From positions 1 to 40,644 of IMG/VR virus record IMGVR_UViG_2561511241_000001: a stretch of 40,644 nt of DNA; one strand, given 5' to 3'. Positions 1,369-7,081 of the stretch are shown one piece after another. The notes under the pieces are model-generated. The model saw only the letters and a program-made list of their open reading frames with translations. It did not search any database and was not told the DNA's origin. The translations under genes were made by a program, and so were the position numbers. Positions within the stretch are counted from its first letter, which is position 1, and every line of letters begins with the position of its first letter. This stretch comes from a virus (taxonomy: Duplodnaviria; Heunggongvirae; Uroviricota; Caudoviricetes).

Positions 1369-1444
1369 GCCGATATAGCTCAGTTGGTAGAGCAGCGCAT
1401 TCGTAATGCGAAGGTCGTAGGTTCGACTCCTATTATCGGCACCA
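1369..1444 (+). tRNA. thrW: tRNA-Thr (anticodon CGU)
   Basis: 76 nt GCCGATATAGCTCAGTTGGTAGAGCAGCGCATTCGTAATGCGAAGGTCGTAGGTTCGACTCCTATTATCGGCACCA; anticodon loop TTCGTAA; T-arm GGTTCGACTCC; 3' CCA encoded. Confidence 0.9.
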
Positions 1445-1458: not shown

Positions 1459-2622
1459 TTACACATCATTAGTACCTTCCTTATTTTTTGACTGGGACAA
1501 ATTTGGGACCGATGGGTTCAGGATCGAGTCTATTTGCCGTGCGTGTTCGGTAAGGTGATTAGGTGCAAGGTGAGCATATCGACGAACCATTTCGATAGAC
1601 TCCCAGCCTCCCATTTCCTGTAACACTGACAACGGGACTCCGGCTTGAACCAGCCAACTTGCCCAGGTGTGTCTCAAGTCGTGAAATCTGAAATCATCAA
1701 TACCAGCCCGTCTCAGCGCCGCTTTCCAGGCTGTGTTTGCGTCATACCGCATCTTCCTTACTGTTGGCGCTTTCGTTCCGTCTGGTTTGGTACAGCTTTC
1801 CTTGTACACAAATACCCAACGGTGATGATTCCCGATTTGTTTTTTCAATACGCGACATGCAGTATCATTCAGCGCAACGCCAATTGCGCGGTTTGATTTA
1901 CTCTCTTCCGGGTTTATCCATGCCACCCGGCGCTGCATATCTATTTGTTGCCATTCAAGGTTGATGATGTTCGAGCGTCTTAAGCCTGTTGCCAGTGCAA
2001 ATTCAACAACAGACTTTAATGGCTCCGGACATTCATCAATCAGCCTTTGTGCTTCATGGGGCTCCAGCCAGCGGATCCGTTTATTCTTTGGTTGAGGCAC
2101 TTTAATAATTGGTGCCTTATCCAGCATTTTCCATTCACGCTCTGCGGCTCTTAGTAGGGCCTTTATAAATGAAAGATGCGTAGCCTTCGTTGCAACGGAC
2201 GCTGGTTTTGGCGTGTATTCTGGAACAGGTTTCCCTTTTTTTCTGCATGCTTCTGCCCTGAGTTTCCAGTTTTCCTCATGACGCCGGTTCGTCATTTTCT
2301 GCATTGCTGAATAAATTTTTGATTCAGTAATGTCTCTTAGTTGCATTCCTGCGAAATGTTGAAGCCAGAATCCGATCCGGCTTTTGTCATCGTCCAGTGA
2401 TTTTTTATGTGCTTTCTCTTCAAGCCACCTGACACACGCTTCCTCGAACGTTATATCAGGTATTTCACCAAGTTTGCTGACCCGCCATGCTTCAGCCTTT
2501 AGCTTGTCATGGAGTTCTGTCGCCTGCCTTTTGTCCTTTGTTCCAAGAGACTGTTTAAATCTTTTACCGTTCGGCAATGTGAAACTGGCGTACCATATTT
2601 CACCTCTGCGGAAGAGTGACAT
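1459..2622 (-). CDS. int: tyrosine integrase (P22/SfV-type, thrW-specific)
   Basis: 387 aa; [34 protein letters not shown]... matches my recollection of P22 Int; C-terminal catalytic region [15 protein letters not shown]...MVRRYAHL (R-H-R-Y signature); GAGGAAA RBS; adjacent to att. Confidence 0.9.
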
Positions 2623-3154: not shown

Positions 3155-3510
3155 TATGCTCCAGCCTCCGGTGCTTTTGGCATTACTGCCCAGTGAGTGA
3201 TATTGACGTTTTCAAGGTCCCCGACCTGAAATGTCCACTGCCATTCTCCGGTTTCTTTTTGTCCCCAGGTGTACCAGAGAGAACGCCAGCCAATTAGCCA
3301 GCCTTCTCCGTTAGCATCGAATAACAAAACACTTTCATTTGCTGGTGGCAGTTCAGTTGACACTGGTATTACTTTGTTTTCCTGTGCTGCACATTTAGCT
3401 TCAAGCGCATCGAATTTACGCACCAGGTATTCAGCATCTGTTTCATTCACTTTCAGATCTCGCGGTACACATCTCCCACGAAGAAACCCTTCCATTTCGA
3501 AAACATTCAT
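3154..3510 (-). CDS. DUF551-like phage protein
   Basis: Motif KVIPVSTELPPANESVLLFDANGEGWLIGW typical of DUF551 proteins of lambdoid prophages; start ATG overlaps stop of upstream gene (ATGA). Confidence 0.6.
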   Translation of the reverse strand: MNVFEMEGFLRGRCVPRDLKVNETDAEYLVRKFDALEAKCAAQENKVIPVSTELPPANESVLLFDANGEGWLIGWRSLWYTWGQKETGEWQWTFQVGDLENVNITHWAVMPKAPEAGA

Positions 3511-4043
3511 GCGCATTTGCGTAACTCCGATAACTCGTTAAAACGTTCCATAAACATCCCGTAGGCATGGCCCGGTGCCTGTGGAATCACTTTGAACATC
3601 TCTGTTGCCGGGATACCTTCCAGTACAGGCCAGAAAGAGCCATCATCAAGCCCGAGATCGCGGTGTTCGGTTGCCAGCATAATGAGATCGGCATATTTCA
3701 CTGGCGTGCTCATAACAGGAGGTAACCCGTATTTCTCACGGATTACGGCGTCTATTTTTTCTTCCATCCGTTTATAGTCAGGAAGAAGTCGTTTCAGTGG
3801 TGCGGGGATGTCCTGGCAATATGCTTCTGTTGCATCATACATTAAAGCTTCAAAAGCAAATTCCTGTGGCACCAGCTGGCTGCAAAGCACCGCATGTTGG
3901 GCGACACTGTAGAAGTGTGAAAGATGTCCTGCAAAGCGACAGATATTTGAAAGGGAAACCGCGATATCGTTAATAACGATGTCGTCTTTATTTATCCTGT
4001 CATAATAAAAATGCTTCCCGGAAAAAGTTTTAATAAATGACAT
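3507..4043 (-). CDS. HD-domain phosphohydrolase (YfdR-like 5'-deoxynucleotidase family)
   Basis: MSFIKTFSGKHFYYDRINKDD...HAVLCSQLVP...HDATEAYCQDIP closely resembles my recollection of CPS-53 YfdR; start chosen at the second ATG, which has a GGAG RBS 6 nt upstream. Confidence 0.7.
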   Translation of the reverse strand: MSFIKTFSGKHFYYDRINKDDIVINDIAVSLSNICRFAGHLSHFYSVAQHAVLCSQLVPQEFAFEALMYDATEAYCQDIPAPLKRLLPDYKRMEEKIDAVIREKYGLPPVMSTPVKYADLIMLATEHRDLGLDDGSFWPVLEGIPATEMFKVIPQAPGHAYGMFMERFNELSELRKCA

Positions 4044-4684
4044 TTTGTTCTCCACGTATATGCGCTGCACCGCGCTGAATTCGGGTAAAAGGAAGCCCTC
4101 ACCGTCCGGCGATTATTGAGTCAATTACATTTCCATAAATGCCCCCGTAGGGGCGGTTAGTTTCTCCACAAAACAGAGAAGAACACCTGCGGTGGCAGCC
4201 GCCCGGATGGATTGGGTTATGAGCCCGTCGTCCGGTGATGCTCTTCTCTGTTTTGTAAAAAGGACGGTACCAGCCGGAAGCAAGGGTACAAGCTGGTACC
4301 GCCAAGACTACACACAGCATAAAGTTGTGGTGCCGGGCGCCTCCCGGTGCCTGGCGAAGGTTGCACACCAGGCGGGTGGGTATCCACAGAAGGTCGACTG
4401 TCAGCCTCAACCTTTACCCGCGTGCGCTGAGCCGCATTCACCACAACGCTAAGGATTCTCTCTGGTTGAAAATACTTAGCTGTTATGTGCCTGCTTTTAG
4501 CCACATCAGGCGAGGTGGACCTAGTTATTCCCCAACAACAAGGATTTGGTTATTATGTAACCCTCCCCAACAACGATAAGGATTTATATGGAACGATGTG
4601 TAGATAAGTATGAGGAGAGGCATGTGCCGTTAAGACAAAAGCCTCCAGTTCCTCCAAAACCACCCAAGGAAAACTGAGACTAAT

Positions 4685-5179
4685 ATGACCAGAGACGATT
4701 ATAAATTTTATATTCACTACTCTTATGTATTGGAGAAGATGAATTACACGTTGTTAACTCGTATTGATAAATTAATAACGTTGATGTTAATCGTTCTCGG
4801 TTTTTCAGTTTTCGCCCCGTACAGTAATTTATTTATTTTCGGTTTGTTTGTTGCCGTACTTTCGGTTCTTCAGTTGGTCTATCAGTTCGGCCAGGAGGCT
4901 GGGATGTCTAAAGAACAAGCGAGGCATTACAAAAGACTGCTGATTGAGTCTGATACTCTTTCTGAAGATCAGTTGCAAGCTAGGTATTTAAAAATCCAAG
5001 ATACCGATAGTAATCCATGGAAATCACTTGAACGAGCGGCTTTCATTCGGGCCTGCATTTTTGCTGGTGTTCCAACTAAGTACGATCTAACAACCAAAGA
5101 AAAATTTATTGCTTGGTGTGCGGGAGATCTACCTCTAGAGAATGAACTAACGGATATTAATGATGACCAACAAGCATAA
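4685..5179 (+). CDS. two-TM membrane protein, possible superinfection-exclusion (SieB-like) moron
   Basis: 164 aa; hydrophobic segments LITLMLIVLGFSVFAPY and LFIFGLFVAVLSVLQLVY followed by a soluble charged C-terminus; AT-rich; opposite to the leftward early operon; internal in-frame ATGs at codons 19 and 34. Function is inferred from position and topology only. Confidence 0.45.
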   Translation: MTRDDYKFYIHYSYVLEKMNYTLLTRIDKLITLMLIVLGFSVFAPYSNLFIFGLFVAVLSVLQLVYQFGQEAGMSKEQARHYKRLLIESDTLSEDQLQARYLKIQDTDSNPWKSLERAAFIRACIFAGVPTKYDLTTKEKFIAWCAGDLPLENELTDINDDQQA

Positions 5180-5345
5180 TCCAGTTCACGGACATGTACC
5201 TCCGAAGCCGAAACCACCGAAACCGAAGAAATGAGACATAATAGGATTGGATAATGAGTCGACCAATAGAGCCTTTTCATATTCCACCTCGTCCCAGGCC
5301 ACCAGATCCAGGCCCAAAGTGAGGGTTACTGATTTTTAAAGAGCG

Positions 5346-5369
5346 AAGCGTCCGGTAGGGCGCTTTTTT
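5346..5369 (+). terminator. rho-independent terminator ending the rightward sieB-like transcription unit
   Basis: AAGCGTCC-GGTA-GGGCGCTT hairpin (8 bp with one G-U pair) followed by TTTTTTGTTG. Confidence 0.5.
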
Positions 5370-5453
5370 GTTGCTAACGAATCATCCTGGACTTCATATG
5401 CTCCAGGGGGCTACTTCGTGGGCGTCCTGCCTGTTTGTTGTTTCGCTTGGGTA

Positions 5454-5482
5454 CATTATGTATCTCAAAGGTACATTGTCAA
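5454..5482 (-). promoter_or_regulatory. candidate PL (leftward early promoter) with overlapping operator half-sites
   Basis: On the minus strand: TTGACA (5482-5477), 17 bp spacer, ATAATG (5459-5454); GGTACAT operator-like motifs at 5449 and 5470 overlap the -35 and -10 regions. Confidence 0.4.
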
Positions 5483-5484
5483 GT

Positions 5485-5508
5485 ATAAAAAACCTGCCGA
5501 AGCAGGTT
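5485..5508 (-). terminator. rho-independent terminator downstream of cI
   Basis: Minus strand AACCTGC-TTCG-GCAGGTT followed by TTTTTTATACTT, immediately 3' of the cI stop at 5521. Confidence 0.5.
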
Positions 5509-5520
5509 CATAAACATTGA

Positions 5521-6195
5521 TTAGGCTTTGATTTTGTATCTTCTTGGTTTTCCTGAGAAAATCACTGTACCAATTATAGAGCAATTACCGTTGATCTTAA
5601 TGTAAGGCTCAGGCCAGTTTGGGTTTAACGCTTTGAGATAACGCTGTGTCCCATCTTCTATCAACCTTTTGAAGGTGGTTTCACCTGTATCGTGCATCAA
5701 TGCAATAACGTCGTCACCGTGGCAGGCAGGTACTTCAGGATCGACAAAAATCATGTCTCCCGGGCGGTACTCATCAATCATTGAATCACCTATCACCCGC
5801 AAGATATAAGTCATTTCCCCACAGGGGACAGGGCAGGGATACGTTTCTGCTGTGCTCAAATCAACCTCAGAATATCCAACTTCTTTCCATGCTCCGGCCT
5901 GTACCCATGATATGACAGGGACTAATGTGATTTGTTTATTAGTGATTGAAACATCAGGTTTTTTTGTGATGTTCGTTGTCTGGTGTTCTTGATCGAGCCA
6001 TCCCACAGGCAGGTCGAAACATTTTTCGATGTGTCGTGCCATGCTGTCACCGATATTTTTAGTAGCACCATCTCCCATAAACCTGCTGGTCTGGGTTGGC
6101 TCGCGATCAATCATAGTGGCAAAGGAAGAATTCCCGCCAACACCATCTCTCAGTTTTCTGGCGTTAGACCGCCGGATGTCATGGATTGTTTTCAT
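5521..6195 (-). CDS. cI: CI-type prophage repressor (HTH + S24 LexA-like peptidase domain)
   Basis: 224 aa; C-terminal S24 signature (GDSM...K in FKRLIEDG) and N-terminal HTH-like region; divergent from a Cro-like gene with a palindromic operator between them. Confidence 0.85.
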   Translation of the reverse strand: MKTIHDIRRSNARKLRDGVGGNSSFATMIDREPTQTSRFMGDGATKNIGDSMARHIEKCFDLPVGWLDQEHQTTNITKKPDVSITNKQITLVPVISWVQAGAWKEVGYSEVDLSTAETYPCPVPCGEMTYILRVIGDSMIDEYRPGDMIFVDPEVPACHGDDVIALMHDTGETTFKRLIEDGTQRYLKALNPNWPEPYIKINGNCSIIGTVIFSGKPRRYKIKA

Positions 6196-6210: not shown

Positions 6211-6231
6211 CTTGTACCGTTAAGGTACAAG
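6211..6231. promoter_or_regulatory. OR operator palindrome
   Basis: Perfect inverted repeat CTTGTACC-GTTAA-GGTACAAG between cI and cro; related GGTACA half-sites recur at 6274 and in the PL region. Confidence 0.55.
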
Positions 6232-6235
6232 TATC

Positions 6236-6263
6236 TTGAAGGTTCATTTTAATCATGTAATAT
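6236..6263 (+). promoter_or_regulatory. candidate PR (rightward early promoter)
   Basis: TTGAAG (6236-6241), 16 bp spacer, TAATAT (6258-6263), about 23 bp upstream of the cro-like ATG; directly flanks the operator palindrome. Confidence 0.4.
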
Positions 6264-6285
6264 GTATACCGGAGGTACATATTGT

Positions 6286-6486
6286 ATGAAAGCGTATTGG
6301 GACTCTTTAACCAAAGAACAGCAGGGCGAGTTGGCCGGAAAAGTTGGCTCAACACCTGGCTACTTACGGCTGGTTTTCAATGGCTATAAAAAAGCCAGTT
6401 TTGTGCTGGCTAAAAAACTTGAGCAATGCACGTCAGGTGCAATTACGAAATCTGACTTAAGACCGGATATCTATCCGAAAGATTAG
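6286..6486 (+). CDS. Cro-like small HTH regulator
   Basis: 66 aa from the ATG with GGAGG RBS (MKAYWDSLTKEQQGELAGKVGSTPGYLRLVFNG...); HTH-like; divergent from cI. Confidence 0.6.
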   Translation: MKAYWDSLTKEQQGELAGKVGSTPGYLRLVFNGYKKASFVLAKKLEQCTSGAITKSDLRPDIYPKD

Positions 6487-6517: not shown

Positions 6518-7081
6518 ATGAGGCTAATCGTGGGTAAGCATCACTGGAAAATAGAAAAACAGCCTGAGTGGTACGTGAAAGCTGTCAGAAAAACTATCGC
6601 GGCGTTGCCGGGTGGTTACGCTGAAGCCGCTGACTGGCTGGATGTAACAGAGAACGCTTTATTCAACCGCCTTCGTGCAGATGGCGATCAGATTTTTCCG
6701 CTGAGATGGGCAATGGTTTTACAGCGTGCTGGTGGCACTCACTTCATTGCTGATGCTGTGGCGCAGTCTGCAAATGGCGTATTTGTGTCTCTTCCTGACG
6801 TCGAGGATGTGGATAACGCCGATATTAACCAGCGTCTGCTGGAAGTCATTGAACAGATCGGCAGTTATTCAAAACAGATTCGTTCAGCAATTGAAGACGG
6901 TGTAGTGGAACCGCATGAGAAGACAGCAATTAACGACGAGCTGTACCTCTCAATTTCGAAGCTGCAGGAGCATGCAGCACTGGTCTACAAAATTTTTTGC
7001 ATTTCAGAAAGTAATGACGCCCGCGAGTGTGCAGCTCCGGGCGCCGTGGCGTGTCGTGACTGTGGAGAAACTAACGCATGA
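6518..7081 (+). CDS. hypothetical early regulator in the cII position
   Basis: 187 aa ORF directly after cro; C-terminal Cys cluster ([14 protein letters not shown]); family not confidently recognised. Confidence 0.45.

Follow-up and report, generated by a model that had tools for sequence, protein, structure and literature searches.

Next to the repressor gene of an Escherichia coli prophage lies an unannotated cassette composed of a gene for a two-helix membrane protein and three genes for proline-rich peptides. It was found in the window, by which we mean the whole stretch of 40,644 nucleotides of phage DNA analysed here. The cassette is made up, in this order, of a leader, gene A, the gene of an inner-membrane protein with two transmembrane helices (2TM), genes B1 and B2, and an intrinsic terminator, which together form one compact and self-contained moron unit (Table 1). 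The element that carries it is an SfV/SfII-like lambdoid prophage, and the cassette is located in a variable cargo ("moron", accessory-gene) slot. A preliminary description of the locus had listed a number of features, all of which are present where it placed them, including a 22-codon ORF preceded by AGGA at 7 nt (B2) and the terminator, with its stem and T-run; it had also recognised a rightward mini-operon closed by a terminator in the neighbourhood of P22 sieB, and this holds as well, sieB of P22 and lambda having the same location and orientation.

Table 1. Features of the cassette and of the adjoining promoter region (positions in the window).
Feature	Position	Strand	Basis
Conserved cargo-slot leader	4487..4587	+	MAFFT alignment
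ORF A, 29 aa, proline-rich, MERCVDKYEERHVPLRQKPPVPPKPPKEN	4588..4677	+	AAGGA 5 nt upstream
Gene of the 164-aa inner-membrane protein	4685..5179	+	ORF, AF2, family clusters
ORF B1, 24 aa, basic proline-rich, MMTNKHNPVHGHVPPKPKPPKPKK	5160..5234	+	TRF, same position in other lineages
ORF B2, 22 aa, proline-rich, MSRPIEPFHIPPRPRPPDPGPK	5254..5322	+	AGGA 7 nt upstream
Intrinsic terminator of the rightward unit	5346..5369	+	terminator scan
PL-like promoter	5439..5482, including operators	-	promoter scan, operator family

The cargo slot is bounded by the conserved leader and the conserved terminator. When 20 upstream regions taken from different genera were aligned with MAFFT, conservation was higher in the leader block than in the coding parts. 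It contains an inverted repeat, GCCTG (4489-4493) and CAGGC (4507-4511), and two copies of CCCCAACAAC (4530-4539 and 4565-4574), each followed by AAGGA, the second of which is the Shine-Dalgarno (SD) sequence of ORF A. The leader is shared by other plus-strand cargo genes in SfIV and PhiR29_1, and SfV lacks the part from 4519 onward. A GC-rich conserved block at 4151-4518 was considered as a part of the cassette and rejected, being phage backbone with a match to the STnc100 sRNA family on the opposite strand. A consensus scan found no convincing plus-strand promoter upstream of ORF A, and inspection of the conserved leader yielded weak candidates only, among them TTCCCC-17-TATTAT with its -10 at 4551-4556; it is thus from the position of the cassette that we infer its expression in the lysogen. 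The terminator has the stem AAGCGTCC/GGGCGCTT (5346-5353/5358-5365), the loop GGTA and a run of six Ts, and the same hairpin on the minus strand lies within the 5' part of the PL transcript. Among 33 distinct sequences from 85 loci the stem is invariant and followed by a T-run, with a loop variable in sequence and in length (3-7 nt); as the stem never varies, covariation is silent either way. Phages whose slot carries other cargo retain the terminator as well. The cassette showed neither an alternative RNA structure nor an attenuator.

On the minus strand, a strong sigma-70-like promoter, TTGACA-16-CATAAT (11/12 matches; -35 at 5482-5477, -10 at 5460-5455), overlaps two 17-nt operators of the form TGTAYC-N5-GGTACA (5439-5457 and 5459-5475). 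Three more copies of this operator are situated between cI and cro (6213-6279), and since one operator family is common to the PL-like promoter and the cI-cro region, the PL assignment is sound. The PL transcript is antisense to the whole cassette, and the 164-aa gene is convergent with the S24 repressor gene cI (5521-6195, minus strand), both as previously described. In most of the loci checked, which cover several immunity types, the cassette is likewise convergent with an S24 repressor gene. The flanks of the slot are 80-98% conserved around differing cargo; the same slot also holds unrelated cargo with no assigned function, and the cargo of SfV is orf33, on the minus strand. The main protein is encoded on more than a thousand contigs of E. 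coli, Shigella and E. albertii; E. coli EC21Z-014, ETEC1749 and strain 3036 are among the carriers of an identical cassette, and, judged by sequence comparison, the cassette is conserved across many enterobacterial prophages. Almost all loci of the family that were examined are set in prophage early regions, and those distant members whose neighbours could be read are found among phage early or regulatory genes.

The 164-aa protein is composed of an N-terminal amphipathic helix, TM1 (about residues 30-46), a short loop, TM2 (about residues 49-66) and a helical C-terminal domain in which the motifs QDxDSNPW and AGDLP are conserved. The two membrane segments, already noted in the preliminary description, are confirmed by the AF2 model, in which both hydrophobic segments are contained in a long helical hairpin (H3-42 and H49-88); the model of the window protein has a pLDDT of 78, that of the Pectobacterium homologue P0014 one of 86. 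Basic residues on either side of the hairpin would place both termini in the cytoplasm, the compartment of peptides made without a signal, and the C-terminal helical domain, covering about residues 67-164, is accordingly predicted to be cytoplasmic. The protein belongs to a wide, uncharacterised family of proteins of about 155 aa with two TM helices, which forms 72 clusters at 90% identity and 228 at 50%, almost all of them full length. It matches PHROG 6315, to which no function is assigned, and searches of Pfam, PADLOC and the PHROGs of known function gave no match. For the family, Pfam and NCBIfam yielded only matches below threshold, of SLATT type or to the TM region. A weak match to TIGR04402 ('mobilome CxxC') in 27 of 36 members, covering residues 49-108 of the window protein, that is, TM2 and the next helix, was not taken as homology.

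The core H-[VI]-P-x-[KR]-x-[KR]-P-P-x-P is common to all three micro-ORFs. In the window, ORF A ends 7 nt before the ATG of the main gene and its peptide has an acidic tail; this third proline-rich ORF had been missed in the preliminary description. B1 begins within the main gene, sharing its final 20 nt in a different frame. The tandem repeat of the CCGAAACC type reported earlier is real (TRF: 5198-5227, period 15, two copies, 86% matches), although it is not a non-coding element, as it codes for PPKPKPPKPKK, the end of the B1 peptide. In a six-frame scan of the 40.6-kb window eight stop-to-stop frames passed the proline-density filter, and three of them lie on the same strand within the 735-nt unit. 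The peptides of the family are 21-35 aa long and carry no signal peptide. Each A and B peptide has at least two Pro-Pro doublets, and many contain APP, PPD, PPP or PPG. The small ORFs are not annotated in RefSeq and are almost absent from a collection of 15 billion proteins.

In about 100 related loci, in which the main protein is 54-100% identical, and in 10 of 11 distant loci, with identities of about 25-43%, the end of an A-type ORF precedes the main ATG by 5-20 nt, and one to three B-type ORFs are located 3' of the main gene; comparison of these loci shows that A-type ORF and membrane protein are paired across the family, members of about 25-43% identity included. In most lineages the stop codon of ORF A lies inside the SD sequence of the main gene (..TGAGGTnnnnnATG). 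ORF A is present in 67 of the 69 distinct modules, and all 69 contain at least one B ORF. The pN/pS ratio of ORF A is 0.39 (25 distinct sequences), and its invariant E, H, P, P, P, P and K columns use two to four synonymous codons. For B1, the class found at the same position in other lineages, the ratio is 0.49 (19 distinct sequences), with an invariant H and five invariant P columns, each written with two to four codons. Fifteen distinct DNA versions of B2 code for M-S-x-P-I-E-P-F-H-[IV]-P-P-x-P-x-P-P (pS 0.64, pN 0.16, ratio 0.25), ten invariant residues each using two to four synonymous codons. With pN/pS in the range of 0.25-0.49 at a pS of 0.64-0.75, and with synonymous codon turnover at invariant residues, the three micro-ORFs are shown by their coding patterns to be conserved as amino-acid sequences under selection. 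The suspicion that the small ORF might be spurious is therefore not upheld, as it is conserved across genera and subject to purifying selection.

Fusions connect the peptides with the membrane protein and with each other. In P0014 the membrane protein carries a B-type peptide as an in-frame C-terminal extension. The linker is disordered in the AF2 model (pLDDT below 50), and the final ten residues, RPPAPPKAQN, reach a pLDDT of 83 without alignment depth, a value that by itself suggests docking of the C-terminal peptide on the membrane protein. B-B peptide fusions occur as well, and in two loci (L072 and L086) the B ORF follows the main stop codon in the same frame. Versions of 186-189 aa (P0002, L010 and L046) were rejected as peptide fusions, since in them the main stop codon is lost and the B1 region is read in the wrong frame. 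At the residue four positions beyond the His, A and B did not co-vary significantly (Fisher p=0.10).

SLATT proteins are SMODS and SLOG-associating 2TM effector domains, known from CBASS-like and reverse-transcriptase defence systems. The membrane-protein family has at best a SLATT-like fold, as modelled. UniRef names two of its members SLATT; among the 36 close members, NCBIfam SLATT_5 is matched by two at 5e-4 and SLATT_4 by three at 0.06, all scores being below the curated cut-offs (12.9 bits for the window protein versus 70). In Pfam, SLATT_5 is found in one of the 36 at 0.034 and DUF4231 in two at 0.0095, and the SLATT models match none of the 66 distant members. A Foldseek search against the viral library BFVD was headed by SLATT proteins, six of the top 13 matches bearing that name, but none of these was significant (probability about 0.9, E 0.2-0.4, TM-score about 0.5), and fold searches of the PDB returned generic helical hairpins only. 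No SMODS, SLOG, TIR, nucleotide-cyclase or reverse-transcriptase partner is encoded nearby, the neighbours being cI, early-left phage genes and the micro-ORFs.

Taken together, the cassette probably serves to defend its lysogen from other phages through a mechanism without prior description, and an exclusion or abortive-infection role, expressed from the prophage, is the most plausible one. As to the mechanism, we tentatively favour a SLATT-like membrane effector, expressed in the lysogen, gated by cytoplasmic proline-rich partner peptides and turned down by antisense transcription from PL. The cassette would be transcribed from the prophage, and translation of the membrane protein would be coupled to that of A. 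The membrane protein, assumed to be toxic, would be a SLATT-like effector, forming pores or lesions, by which superinfecting phages are excluded or aborted. The A and B peptides, in a polyproline-II conformation, would be its direct partners, binding its cytoplasmic part and keeping it closed or gating it, and their loss or displacement, e.g., when an infecting phage shuts off host expression, would free the effector. Upon prophage induction, PL transcription running antisense through the cassette would lower its output, according to the logic of sas and Esc for P22 sieB. The architecture, with A and B conserved beside the gene in nearly all modules and A in distant loci, the selection on the peptides, the A stop codon within the main SD, the shared compartment of the membrane-protein termini and the signal-less peptides, the SLATT-like hints from UniRef, NCBIfam and Foldseek, the physical link provided by the P0014 and B-B fusions, and the moron slot in a prophage context with PL and its operators all count in favour of such a gated effector, for which SpoIISABC (PMC4926146) and sieB/sas (PMC12197685) offer precedents. 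Against it stand the lack of matches in PADLOC, Pfam and the PHROGs of known function, the sub-threshold SLATT scores, the Foldseek E values and the missing nucleotide-signalling partner gene, as well as the non-significant A-B co-variation. The invariant His and two invariant Pro-Pro doublets, moreover, exceed what a typical PxxP ligand needs, so that ribosome-directed explanations fit these residues at least as well.

The reading in the preliminary description was of a SieB-family superinfection-exclusion protein, beside which the small ORF would be incidental, and the position of the cassette would suit it. SieB aborts the lytic growth of superinfecting phages, with self-escape via Esc and sas (PMC12197685), and the statement in the preliminary description that P22 sieB is controlled by an antisense RNA is correct, sas being this RNA (PMC12197685; PMC7067206). 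Lambda sieB lies on the plus strand between ral and N, opposite to PL, and the window gene, on the plus strand between the early-left genes and PL/cI, has a SieB-type location, codes for a membrane protein of similar size and is arranged antisense to PL. The designation 'SieB-like' nevertheless does not extend to homology: the Pfam SieB model (PF14163) matches none of the 36 close members at E<=10 and none of the 66 distant ones at E<=0.01, while it matches lambda SieB, the positive control, at 1e-29, and hhalign of the family versus lambda SieB gives a probability of 0.14%. The comparison proposed earlier, made here against lambda SieB and PF14163, thus reveals no similarity, homology of the 164-aa protein to SieB is refuted at the sequence level, and with the small ORFs conserved and under selection a SieB-family protein is a very improbable solution. 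A function outside defence, such as envelope or transport modulation, lysogenic conversion or antisense control of the phage's own induction via PL, has a low but appreciable probability. PADLOC matched no described defence family, the slot also accommodates unrelated cargo without assigned function, and the cassette transcript, antisense to the PL leader, could damp PL. A repressor-adjoining position antisense to early lytic genes is, however, typical of exclusion and accessory loci (PMC7067206), the family resides in prophage early regions in almost all cases, and a product acting as antisense RNA would not predict amino-acid selection on four ORFs.

Two further explanations direct the peptides to the ribosome. 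The micro-ORFs may be translation-rate sensors in cis, their Pro-Pro pauses requiring EF-P and the peptides themselves being by-products. As the main gene is coupled to ORF A, the output of membrane protein would then report EF-P or translation status, and transcript survival, via Rho or the terminator, might also be affected. The motifs APP, PPD, PPP and PPG cause strong stalling without EF-P. At least two Pro-Pro doublets in every peptide, the many strong-stall motifs and the A stop codon in or adjoining the main SD are in line with such a sensor, as are EF-P-dependent leader ORFs, which are known to influence transcription-translation coupling (PMC5021804). Yet a stalling device alone needs no invariant non-proline residues, and such residues are invariant with synonymous turnover (His in all classes, E-x-H in A, P-I-E-P-F-H in B2), which counts against it. 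The B ORFs, located downstream of the main gene with only the terminator after them, lack any target for regulation in cis; depending on the lineage, 3 to 9 codons separate the last Pro-Pro and the main SD, which leaves no fixed occlusion geometry, and peptide-protein and peptide-peptide fusions are tolerated. A cis sensor, too, has a low but appreciable probability. Alternatively, the peptides might be phage analogues of proline-rich antimicrobial peptides (PrAMPs) that would bind the ribosomal exit tunnel/PTC or DnaK and inhibit translation, either as an abortive-infection or anti-competitor toxin or as arrest peptides in cis, with the acidic-tailed A or the 2TM protein as modulator, immunity factor or conduit. 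Their core P-[KR]-P-[RK]-P-P-x-P after an aromatic residue or His-[IV]-P can be compared with YLPRPRPP of oncocin and YIPQPRPP of apidaecin (PMC10862732). Scored with a profile of 24 B peptides, oncocin, apidaecin and metalnikowin, with which the peptides have the ordered core PxPRPPxP in common, rank modestly above shuffles, exceeding 96.5-98.6% of composition-matched ones (p=0.035, 0.018 and 0.014). The earlier statement that the proline-rich peptide resembles ribosome-targeting ones in composition only was hence slightly too weak, as the order of residues is similar too, at p of about 0.014-0.035. PrAMPs expressed in E. coli also inhibit growth, and the central Arg of their PRP motif tolerates Lys (PMC10862732). 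The match is, however, limited to 6-8 residues, the three PrAMPs are not independent, Tur1A did not score significantly against the B-peptide profile, and the profile found no match among PDB sequences and thus no relative of solved structure. In PrAMPs the PRP motif is flanked by Tyr (YL or YR) (PMC10862732), whereas in the peptides, in which P-[RK]-P-[RK]-P-P is nearly invariant, the flank is a His preceded by Phe or Asn, and the alignment is shifted by one residue. A constitutive translation inhibitor would also be costly for the lysogen, and the in-frame fusion in P0014 is more easily reconciled with a partner near the membrane than with a ligand of the ribosome. An analogue of PrAMPs is quite unlikely. 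The broader proposal that enterobacterial temperate phages encode a micropeptide family, with the core His-[VI]-Pro-Pro-[KR]-Pro-[RK]-Pro-Pro, which acts on the ribosome, whether PrAMP-like in trans or as nascent chains tying the output of the 2TM effector to EF-P or translation status, is just as doubtful.

Gating of a membrane effector by peptides would, if true, constitute a new logic of prophage exclusion or toxin-antitoxin control, built from polyproline micropeptides. Should the peptides act on the ribosome, animal PrAMPs would have their first bacterial or phage counterpart, or else a natural sensor linked to EF-P would be at hand, and the cassette would be a translation-sensing or translation-targeting immunity module without a described counterpart. 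The family comprises 228 clusters at 50% identity, yet its micropeptide genes are missing from RefSeq annotation. The self-contained cassette of about 880 bp is simple to clone and test, and the defined cargo slot of SfV/SfII/ST64B-like phages is a source of further accessory genes.

In the literature, no described system was found that joins SLATT or other 2TM proteins with proline-rich small proteins in prophages; the individual parts of the cassette do recall known systems. As modelled, the membrane protein resembles SLATT proteins in size and in its helix-TM-TM-helix hairpin, and it differs from them in the additional conserved C-terminal helical domain, in scores under the curated thresholds and in having proline-rich micropeptides in place of a nucleotide-signalling partner gene. 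The likeness to SieB of P22 and lambda lies in a membrane-protein gene of similar size, situated early-left and antisense to its own PL lytic transcript, and, by analogy, in the presumed role of aborting superinfecting phages. Sequence and profile similarity is absent, however, and SieB has no flanking proline-rich micro-ORFs. SieB is accompanied by Esc and sas, whereas the putative antisense RNA of the cassette is the PL transcript. As in mok/hok and in polyproline leader ORFs dependent on EF-P, the stop codon of a short upstream ORF with consecutive prolines overlaps the SD of a gene for a membrane protein, and the unit is covered by an antisense transcript; unlike in those systems, the sequence of the leader peptide is conserved, its paralogues are repeated 3' of the gene, and the antisense partner is the whole PL transcript. 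PrAMPs such as oncocin, metalnikowin and apidaecin resemble the peptides in being basic, about 20 aa long and built around a P-R/K-P-R-P-P core after an aromatic residue or His and an aliphatic one. The cassette peptides, on the other hand, are phage-encoded and would be produced within the bacterial cell, as they have no signal peptide; the tail of the A peptide is acidic, and binding to the ribosome or DnaK is putative. The Bacillus system SpoIISA/SpoIISB/SpoIISC consists of a membrane-anchored toxin and two small cytosolic peptides, by whose binding the toxin is neutralised (PMC4926146, PMC4526809). No homology connects the two systems, the SpoIIS families being absent from the Pfam matches of the 36 close and 66 distant members, and the cassette is set apart by a translationally coupled peptide gene upstream, by peptides rich in proline and 21-35 aa in length, and by its prophage context; its toxin or antitoxin activity is putative. 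It is nonetheless SpoIISABC that provides the closest precedent, since in both systems a membrane protein with a cytoplasmic domain is combined with several paralogous micropeptides, which in the cassette are predicted to bind it.

The main gene, which encodes a 164-aa protein with two transmembrane segments, belongs to a four-gene, translationally linked, self-terminated cassette that also comprises three proline-rich micro-ORFs, A, B1 and B2, and is enclosed by a conserved leader and a terminator (see Table). The main gene, the 22-aa ORF (B2) and the terminator had been recognized in the preliminary description and are present as stated there; the CCGAAACC repeat that it listed is a genuine 15-nt tandem duplication, but a coding one, specifying PPKPKPPKPKK at the C-terminal end of the 24-aa B1. 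A, B1 and B2 share the core H-[VI]-P-x-[KR]-x-[KR]-P-P-x-P and, as the codons of B1 and B2 differ throughout, this likeness is at the protein level. When all six frames of the window (40.6 kb) were filtered for proline density, only eight stop-to-stop frames passed, and three of these lie in the cassette. The RefSeq annotation of the cassette lists only the 164-aa CDS, and four of the five micropeptide sequences looked up in a collection of 15 billion proteins, B1 and B2 of the window included, gave no match there; ORF A has two entries.

Table. Features of the prophage region carrying the cassette (window positions)
Feature	Position	Strand	Description
tRNA gene	1369-1441		71.8 bits; 17 nt from integrase gene end
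Integrase	1459-2622		adjoins tRNA gene
YfdR-like HD phosphohydrolase	3507-4070		among early-left genes
Leader	4487-4587	+	inverted repeat GCCTG...CAGGC overlapping CCAC...GTGG; two CCCCAACAAC-(N)-AAGGA units, 35 nt apart
ORF A	4588-4677		MERCVDKYEERHVPLRQKPPVPPKPPKEN; AAGGA 5 nt upstream; stop 7 nt 5' of main ATG
Main gene	4685-5179	+	164 aa
ORF B1	5160-5234		MMTNKHNPVHGHVPPKPKPPKPKK
Tandem duplication	5198-5227		within B1
ORF B2	5254-5322		AGGA 7 nt upstream
Terminator	5346-5369		stem 5346-5353/5358-5365, followed by T-run
Operators, two copies	5439-5475		17 nt, TGTAYC-N5-GGTACA
PL promoter	5482-5455	-	near-consensus TTGACA-16-CATAAT; overlapped by operators 5439-5475
cI (Peptidase_S24)	5521-6195	-
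Operators, three copies	6213-6279		between cI and cro
cro, YdaS-type	6262-6486
cII, CP76-type	6518-7081

The main protein forms 72 clusters at 90% identity in Enterobacterales. Approximately 100 loci were fetched from genomes, metagenomes and IMG/VR, and 69 distinct full modules, with main proteins 54-100% identical, were compared. An A-type ORF ending 6-20 nt upstream of the main ATG is present in 67 of them, and one to three B-type ORFs, starting at or shortly past the main stop, in all 69, amounting to 28 distinct A and 51 distinct B peptides. The A consensus is ..D-Y-E-E-[KR]-H-[MLV]-P-x-x-[KRQ]-x-P-x-P-P-K-P, after which there is usually an acidic tail; in one sublineage the tail is basic. 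Three classes are distinguished among the B peptides, PIIPNH-V-PPKPRPPAPK, MS-x-PIEPFH-[IV]-PP-x-P-x-PP-x-PGK (including B2 of the window) and ..EGPRPDS-H-[VI]-PP-[RK]-P-x-P-x-PRP-[KR]. Codon-level comparison gave a pN/pS of 0.25 for B2 (pS 0.64, pN 0.16), 0.35 for B3, the third B class (0.70, 0.24), 0.39 for A (0.75, 0.29) and 0.49 for B1 (0.69, 0.34), and each invariant His, Pro, Glu, Phe and Lys column is written with two to four synonymous codons. This pattern marks selection at the level of the amino-acid sequence rather than of DNA or RNA, and the small ORFs are real genes; the conserved B-type ORFs and the low ratio of B2 speak against the earlier suspicion that the 22-aa ORF is spurious. 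An HMM search of 1.84 billion representatives extended the main-protein family to 228 clusters (E ≤ 1e-3), nearly all full-length at 150-180 aa. In 10 of 11 loci of distant members (~25-43% identical) a proline-rich ORF, e.g., MNAPKPDAHKPINERPVPPPKPQRKS, MSDSDKFHVPRQPAPAPEKGQGRDDEEG or MEQYSLENYVPKKPPPPKPNPPKK, stops 5-13 nt short of where the homologous region begins, and therefore A and the membrane protein are paired throughout the family; B-type ORFs also occur at some of these 11 loci.

In most lineages the Shine-Dalgarno (SD) sequence of the main gene includes the stop codon of A (..gacTGAGGTnnnnnATG), an arrangement typical of termination-reinitiation coupling; in the window this SD is degraded to TGAGAC, making dependence on A more likely. 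B1 begins inside the 3'-terminal codons of the main gene, its frame varying by lineage, and B2 and B3 in many cases have an AGGA-type SD of their own; an SD core of at least 4 nt at suitable spacing was found in 27 of 36 A contexts and 35 of 60 distinct B contexts. In some variants from Enterobacter and E. coli (loci L010 2501-3061 and L046 622-1191; homologue P0002) the main stop has been lost, and the main gene continues for 22-25 codons across the B1 region, out of frame with B1 (..ESGSRTCSSEAETTETKE..). B1 itself is intact in its own frame, so that two coding frames overlap. At loci L029/L086 and L072 a B ORF lies in frame with the main gene, one stop codon between them (..GDLPKH*ELIMYSPKPGGHVPPRPRPPKPKV..), and readthrough would yield a fusion like that encoded by the Pectobacterium homologue P0014.

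The main protein is a 2TM protein facing the cytoplasm. In the AlphaFold2 (AF2) prediction, residues 3-42 and 49-88 form a long helical hairpin (pLDDT 78; 86 for P0014), whose middle parts are the two hydrophobic segments, followed by four short helices with conserved QDxDSNPW and AGDLP motifs; the basic residues flanking the hairpin on both sides place both termini, by prediction, in the cytoplasm. The preliminary description called the protein SieB-like, but homology to SieB is rejected, and it is extremely improbable that the protein is homologous to SieB and the small ORF incidental: the Pfam SieB model, which finds lambda SieB at 1e-29, matched none of 36 close (E ≤ 10) or 66 distant members (E ≤ 0.01), and hhalign of the family against lambda SieB gave a probability of 0.14%. 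The nearest named fold is SLATT. Two family members are labelled SLATT by UniRef, NCBIfam SLATT_5 and SLATT_4 match weakly, below the curated threshold, and giant-virus SLATT proteins head the Foldseek list (probability ~0.9, but E 0.2-0.4); as no score reaches the curated threshold and no nucleotide-signalling partner lies nearby, the protein is termed SLATT-like and not a SLATT member.

An E. coli lambdoid prophage of the SfV/SfII/SfIV type makes up the window. SfV-type phages integrate at a tRNA-Thr gene, and the tRNA gene of the window is likely the attachment site. The operator family sets the immunity specificity of this prophage. Since the minus-strand promoter overlaps operators found also between cI and cro, it is PL; its leftward transcript runs antisense through the whole cassette, which bears out the antisense arrangement noted earlier for the main gene. 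The segments 4151-4518 and ~5331-5520 are phage backbone, 80-98% identical in SfV, SfIV, mEp460, ST64B and Stx2c phages, and the middle differs. There SfV carries orf33 on the opposite strand (L001 3070-3366), SfIV the unrelated 144-aa SfIV_36 (+ strand, L101 1289-1723) and PhiR29_1 an unrelated coiled-coil protein with CxxC...CxxC (+ strand, L102 ~1290-1805); the latter two have the same leader and terminator as the cassette, and SfV shares the terminator. The slot is thus an accessory-gene swap site with cargo of unknown function, worth mining. In most loci checked the cassette is convergent with an S24 repressor gene, the repressors being of several immunity types; such a location is typical of morons and is where lambda carries sieB.

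Across genera the leader is better conserved than the coding sequences behind it, and its core, ACAAGGAU, we take to resemble the CsrA-binding consensus; in the window lineage only, a start-stop mini-ORF, ATG-TAA, follows the first leader unit (4555-4560). The terminator stem is invariant and its loop variable (33 distinct sequences), whatever the cargo, and an invariant AGATT(G/T)TTAAAGAGC precedes the hairpin (5331-5345). On the minus strand CGCUCUUUAA comes after the hairpin, which may therefore have a role in the PL transcript as well, in weak termination, processing or antitermination. Downstream of the slot on that transcript, the GC-rich "non-coding" backbone block 4151-4518 has a full-length match to Rfam STnc100 (RF02076) at 4254-4477 on the minus strand (42.2 bits, the gathering score being 47; E 2e-7), with a weak DicF-like match at 4262-4316, which suggests a candidate sRNA that, like DicF, would be processed from the early-left operon.

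The reading tentatively favoured is that the main protein is a membrane effector made in the lysogen, that the proline-rich peptides would partner it directly in the cytoplasm, as gate or antitoxin, and that antisense PL transcription would silence the cassette during the phage's own lytic growth. In P0014 a B peptide is fused in frame to the C-terminus; in the AF2 model the linker is disordered (pLDDT <50) and the final RPPAPPKAQN has a pLDDT of 83 with no alignment depth, as might be expected for a docked tail. B-B fusions occur as well. The membrane toxin SpoIISA, neutralised by two small cytosolic peptides, SpoIISB and SpoIISC (PMC4926146), would be a precedent, and the antisense arrangement would follow the silencing logic known for sieB and sas (PMC12197685).

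That the micro-ORFs are instead cis-acting, EF-P-dependent stalling leaders agrees with the invariance of the Pro-Pro doublets and with A being coupled to the main gene, but leaves unexplained why non-proline residues are invariant too, why there are ORFs past the main gene and why the spacing between stall site and SD varies, and is unlikely; a non-defence accessory function of the cassette has a similarly small chance of being correct. Less probable still are intracellularly made ligands of the ribosome or DnaK resembling proline-rich antimicrobial peptides (PrAMPs). Expression of PrAMPs in E. coli is toxic (PMC10862732), and the alignment of the core PxPRPPxP with oncocin, apidaecin and metalnikowin surpasses that of 96.5-98.6% of composition-matched shuffles, so that the likeness extends modestly beyond the composition to which it was first confined; the match is short, however, with His in place of the flanking Tyr.

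The main-protein family is not described in Pfam, PADLOC (no match) or the literature searched, and PHROGs hold it only as an unnamed family, 6315, of "unknown function". Ribosome-directed peptides, improbable as they are, would be categorically new. Among known systems, those nearest in kind to the cassette are membrane-effector cassettes for prophage exclusion or of the toxin-antitoxin type, and what is new in comparison is the polyproline micropeptide partners, which are unannotated and number two to four in each cassette.
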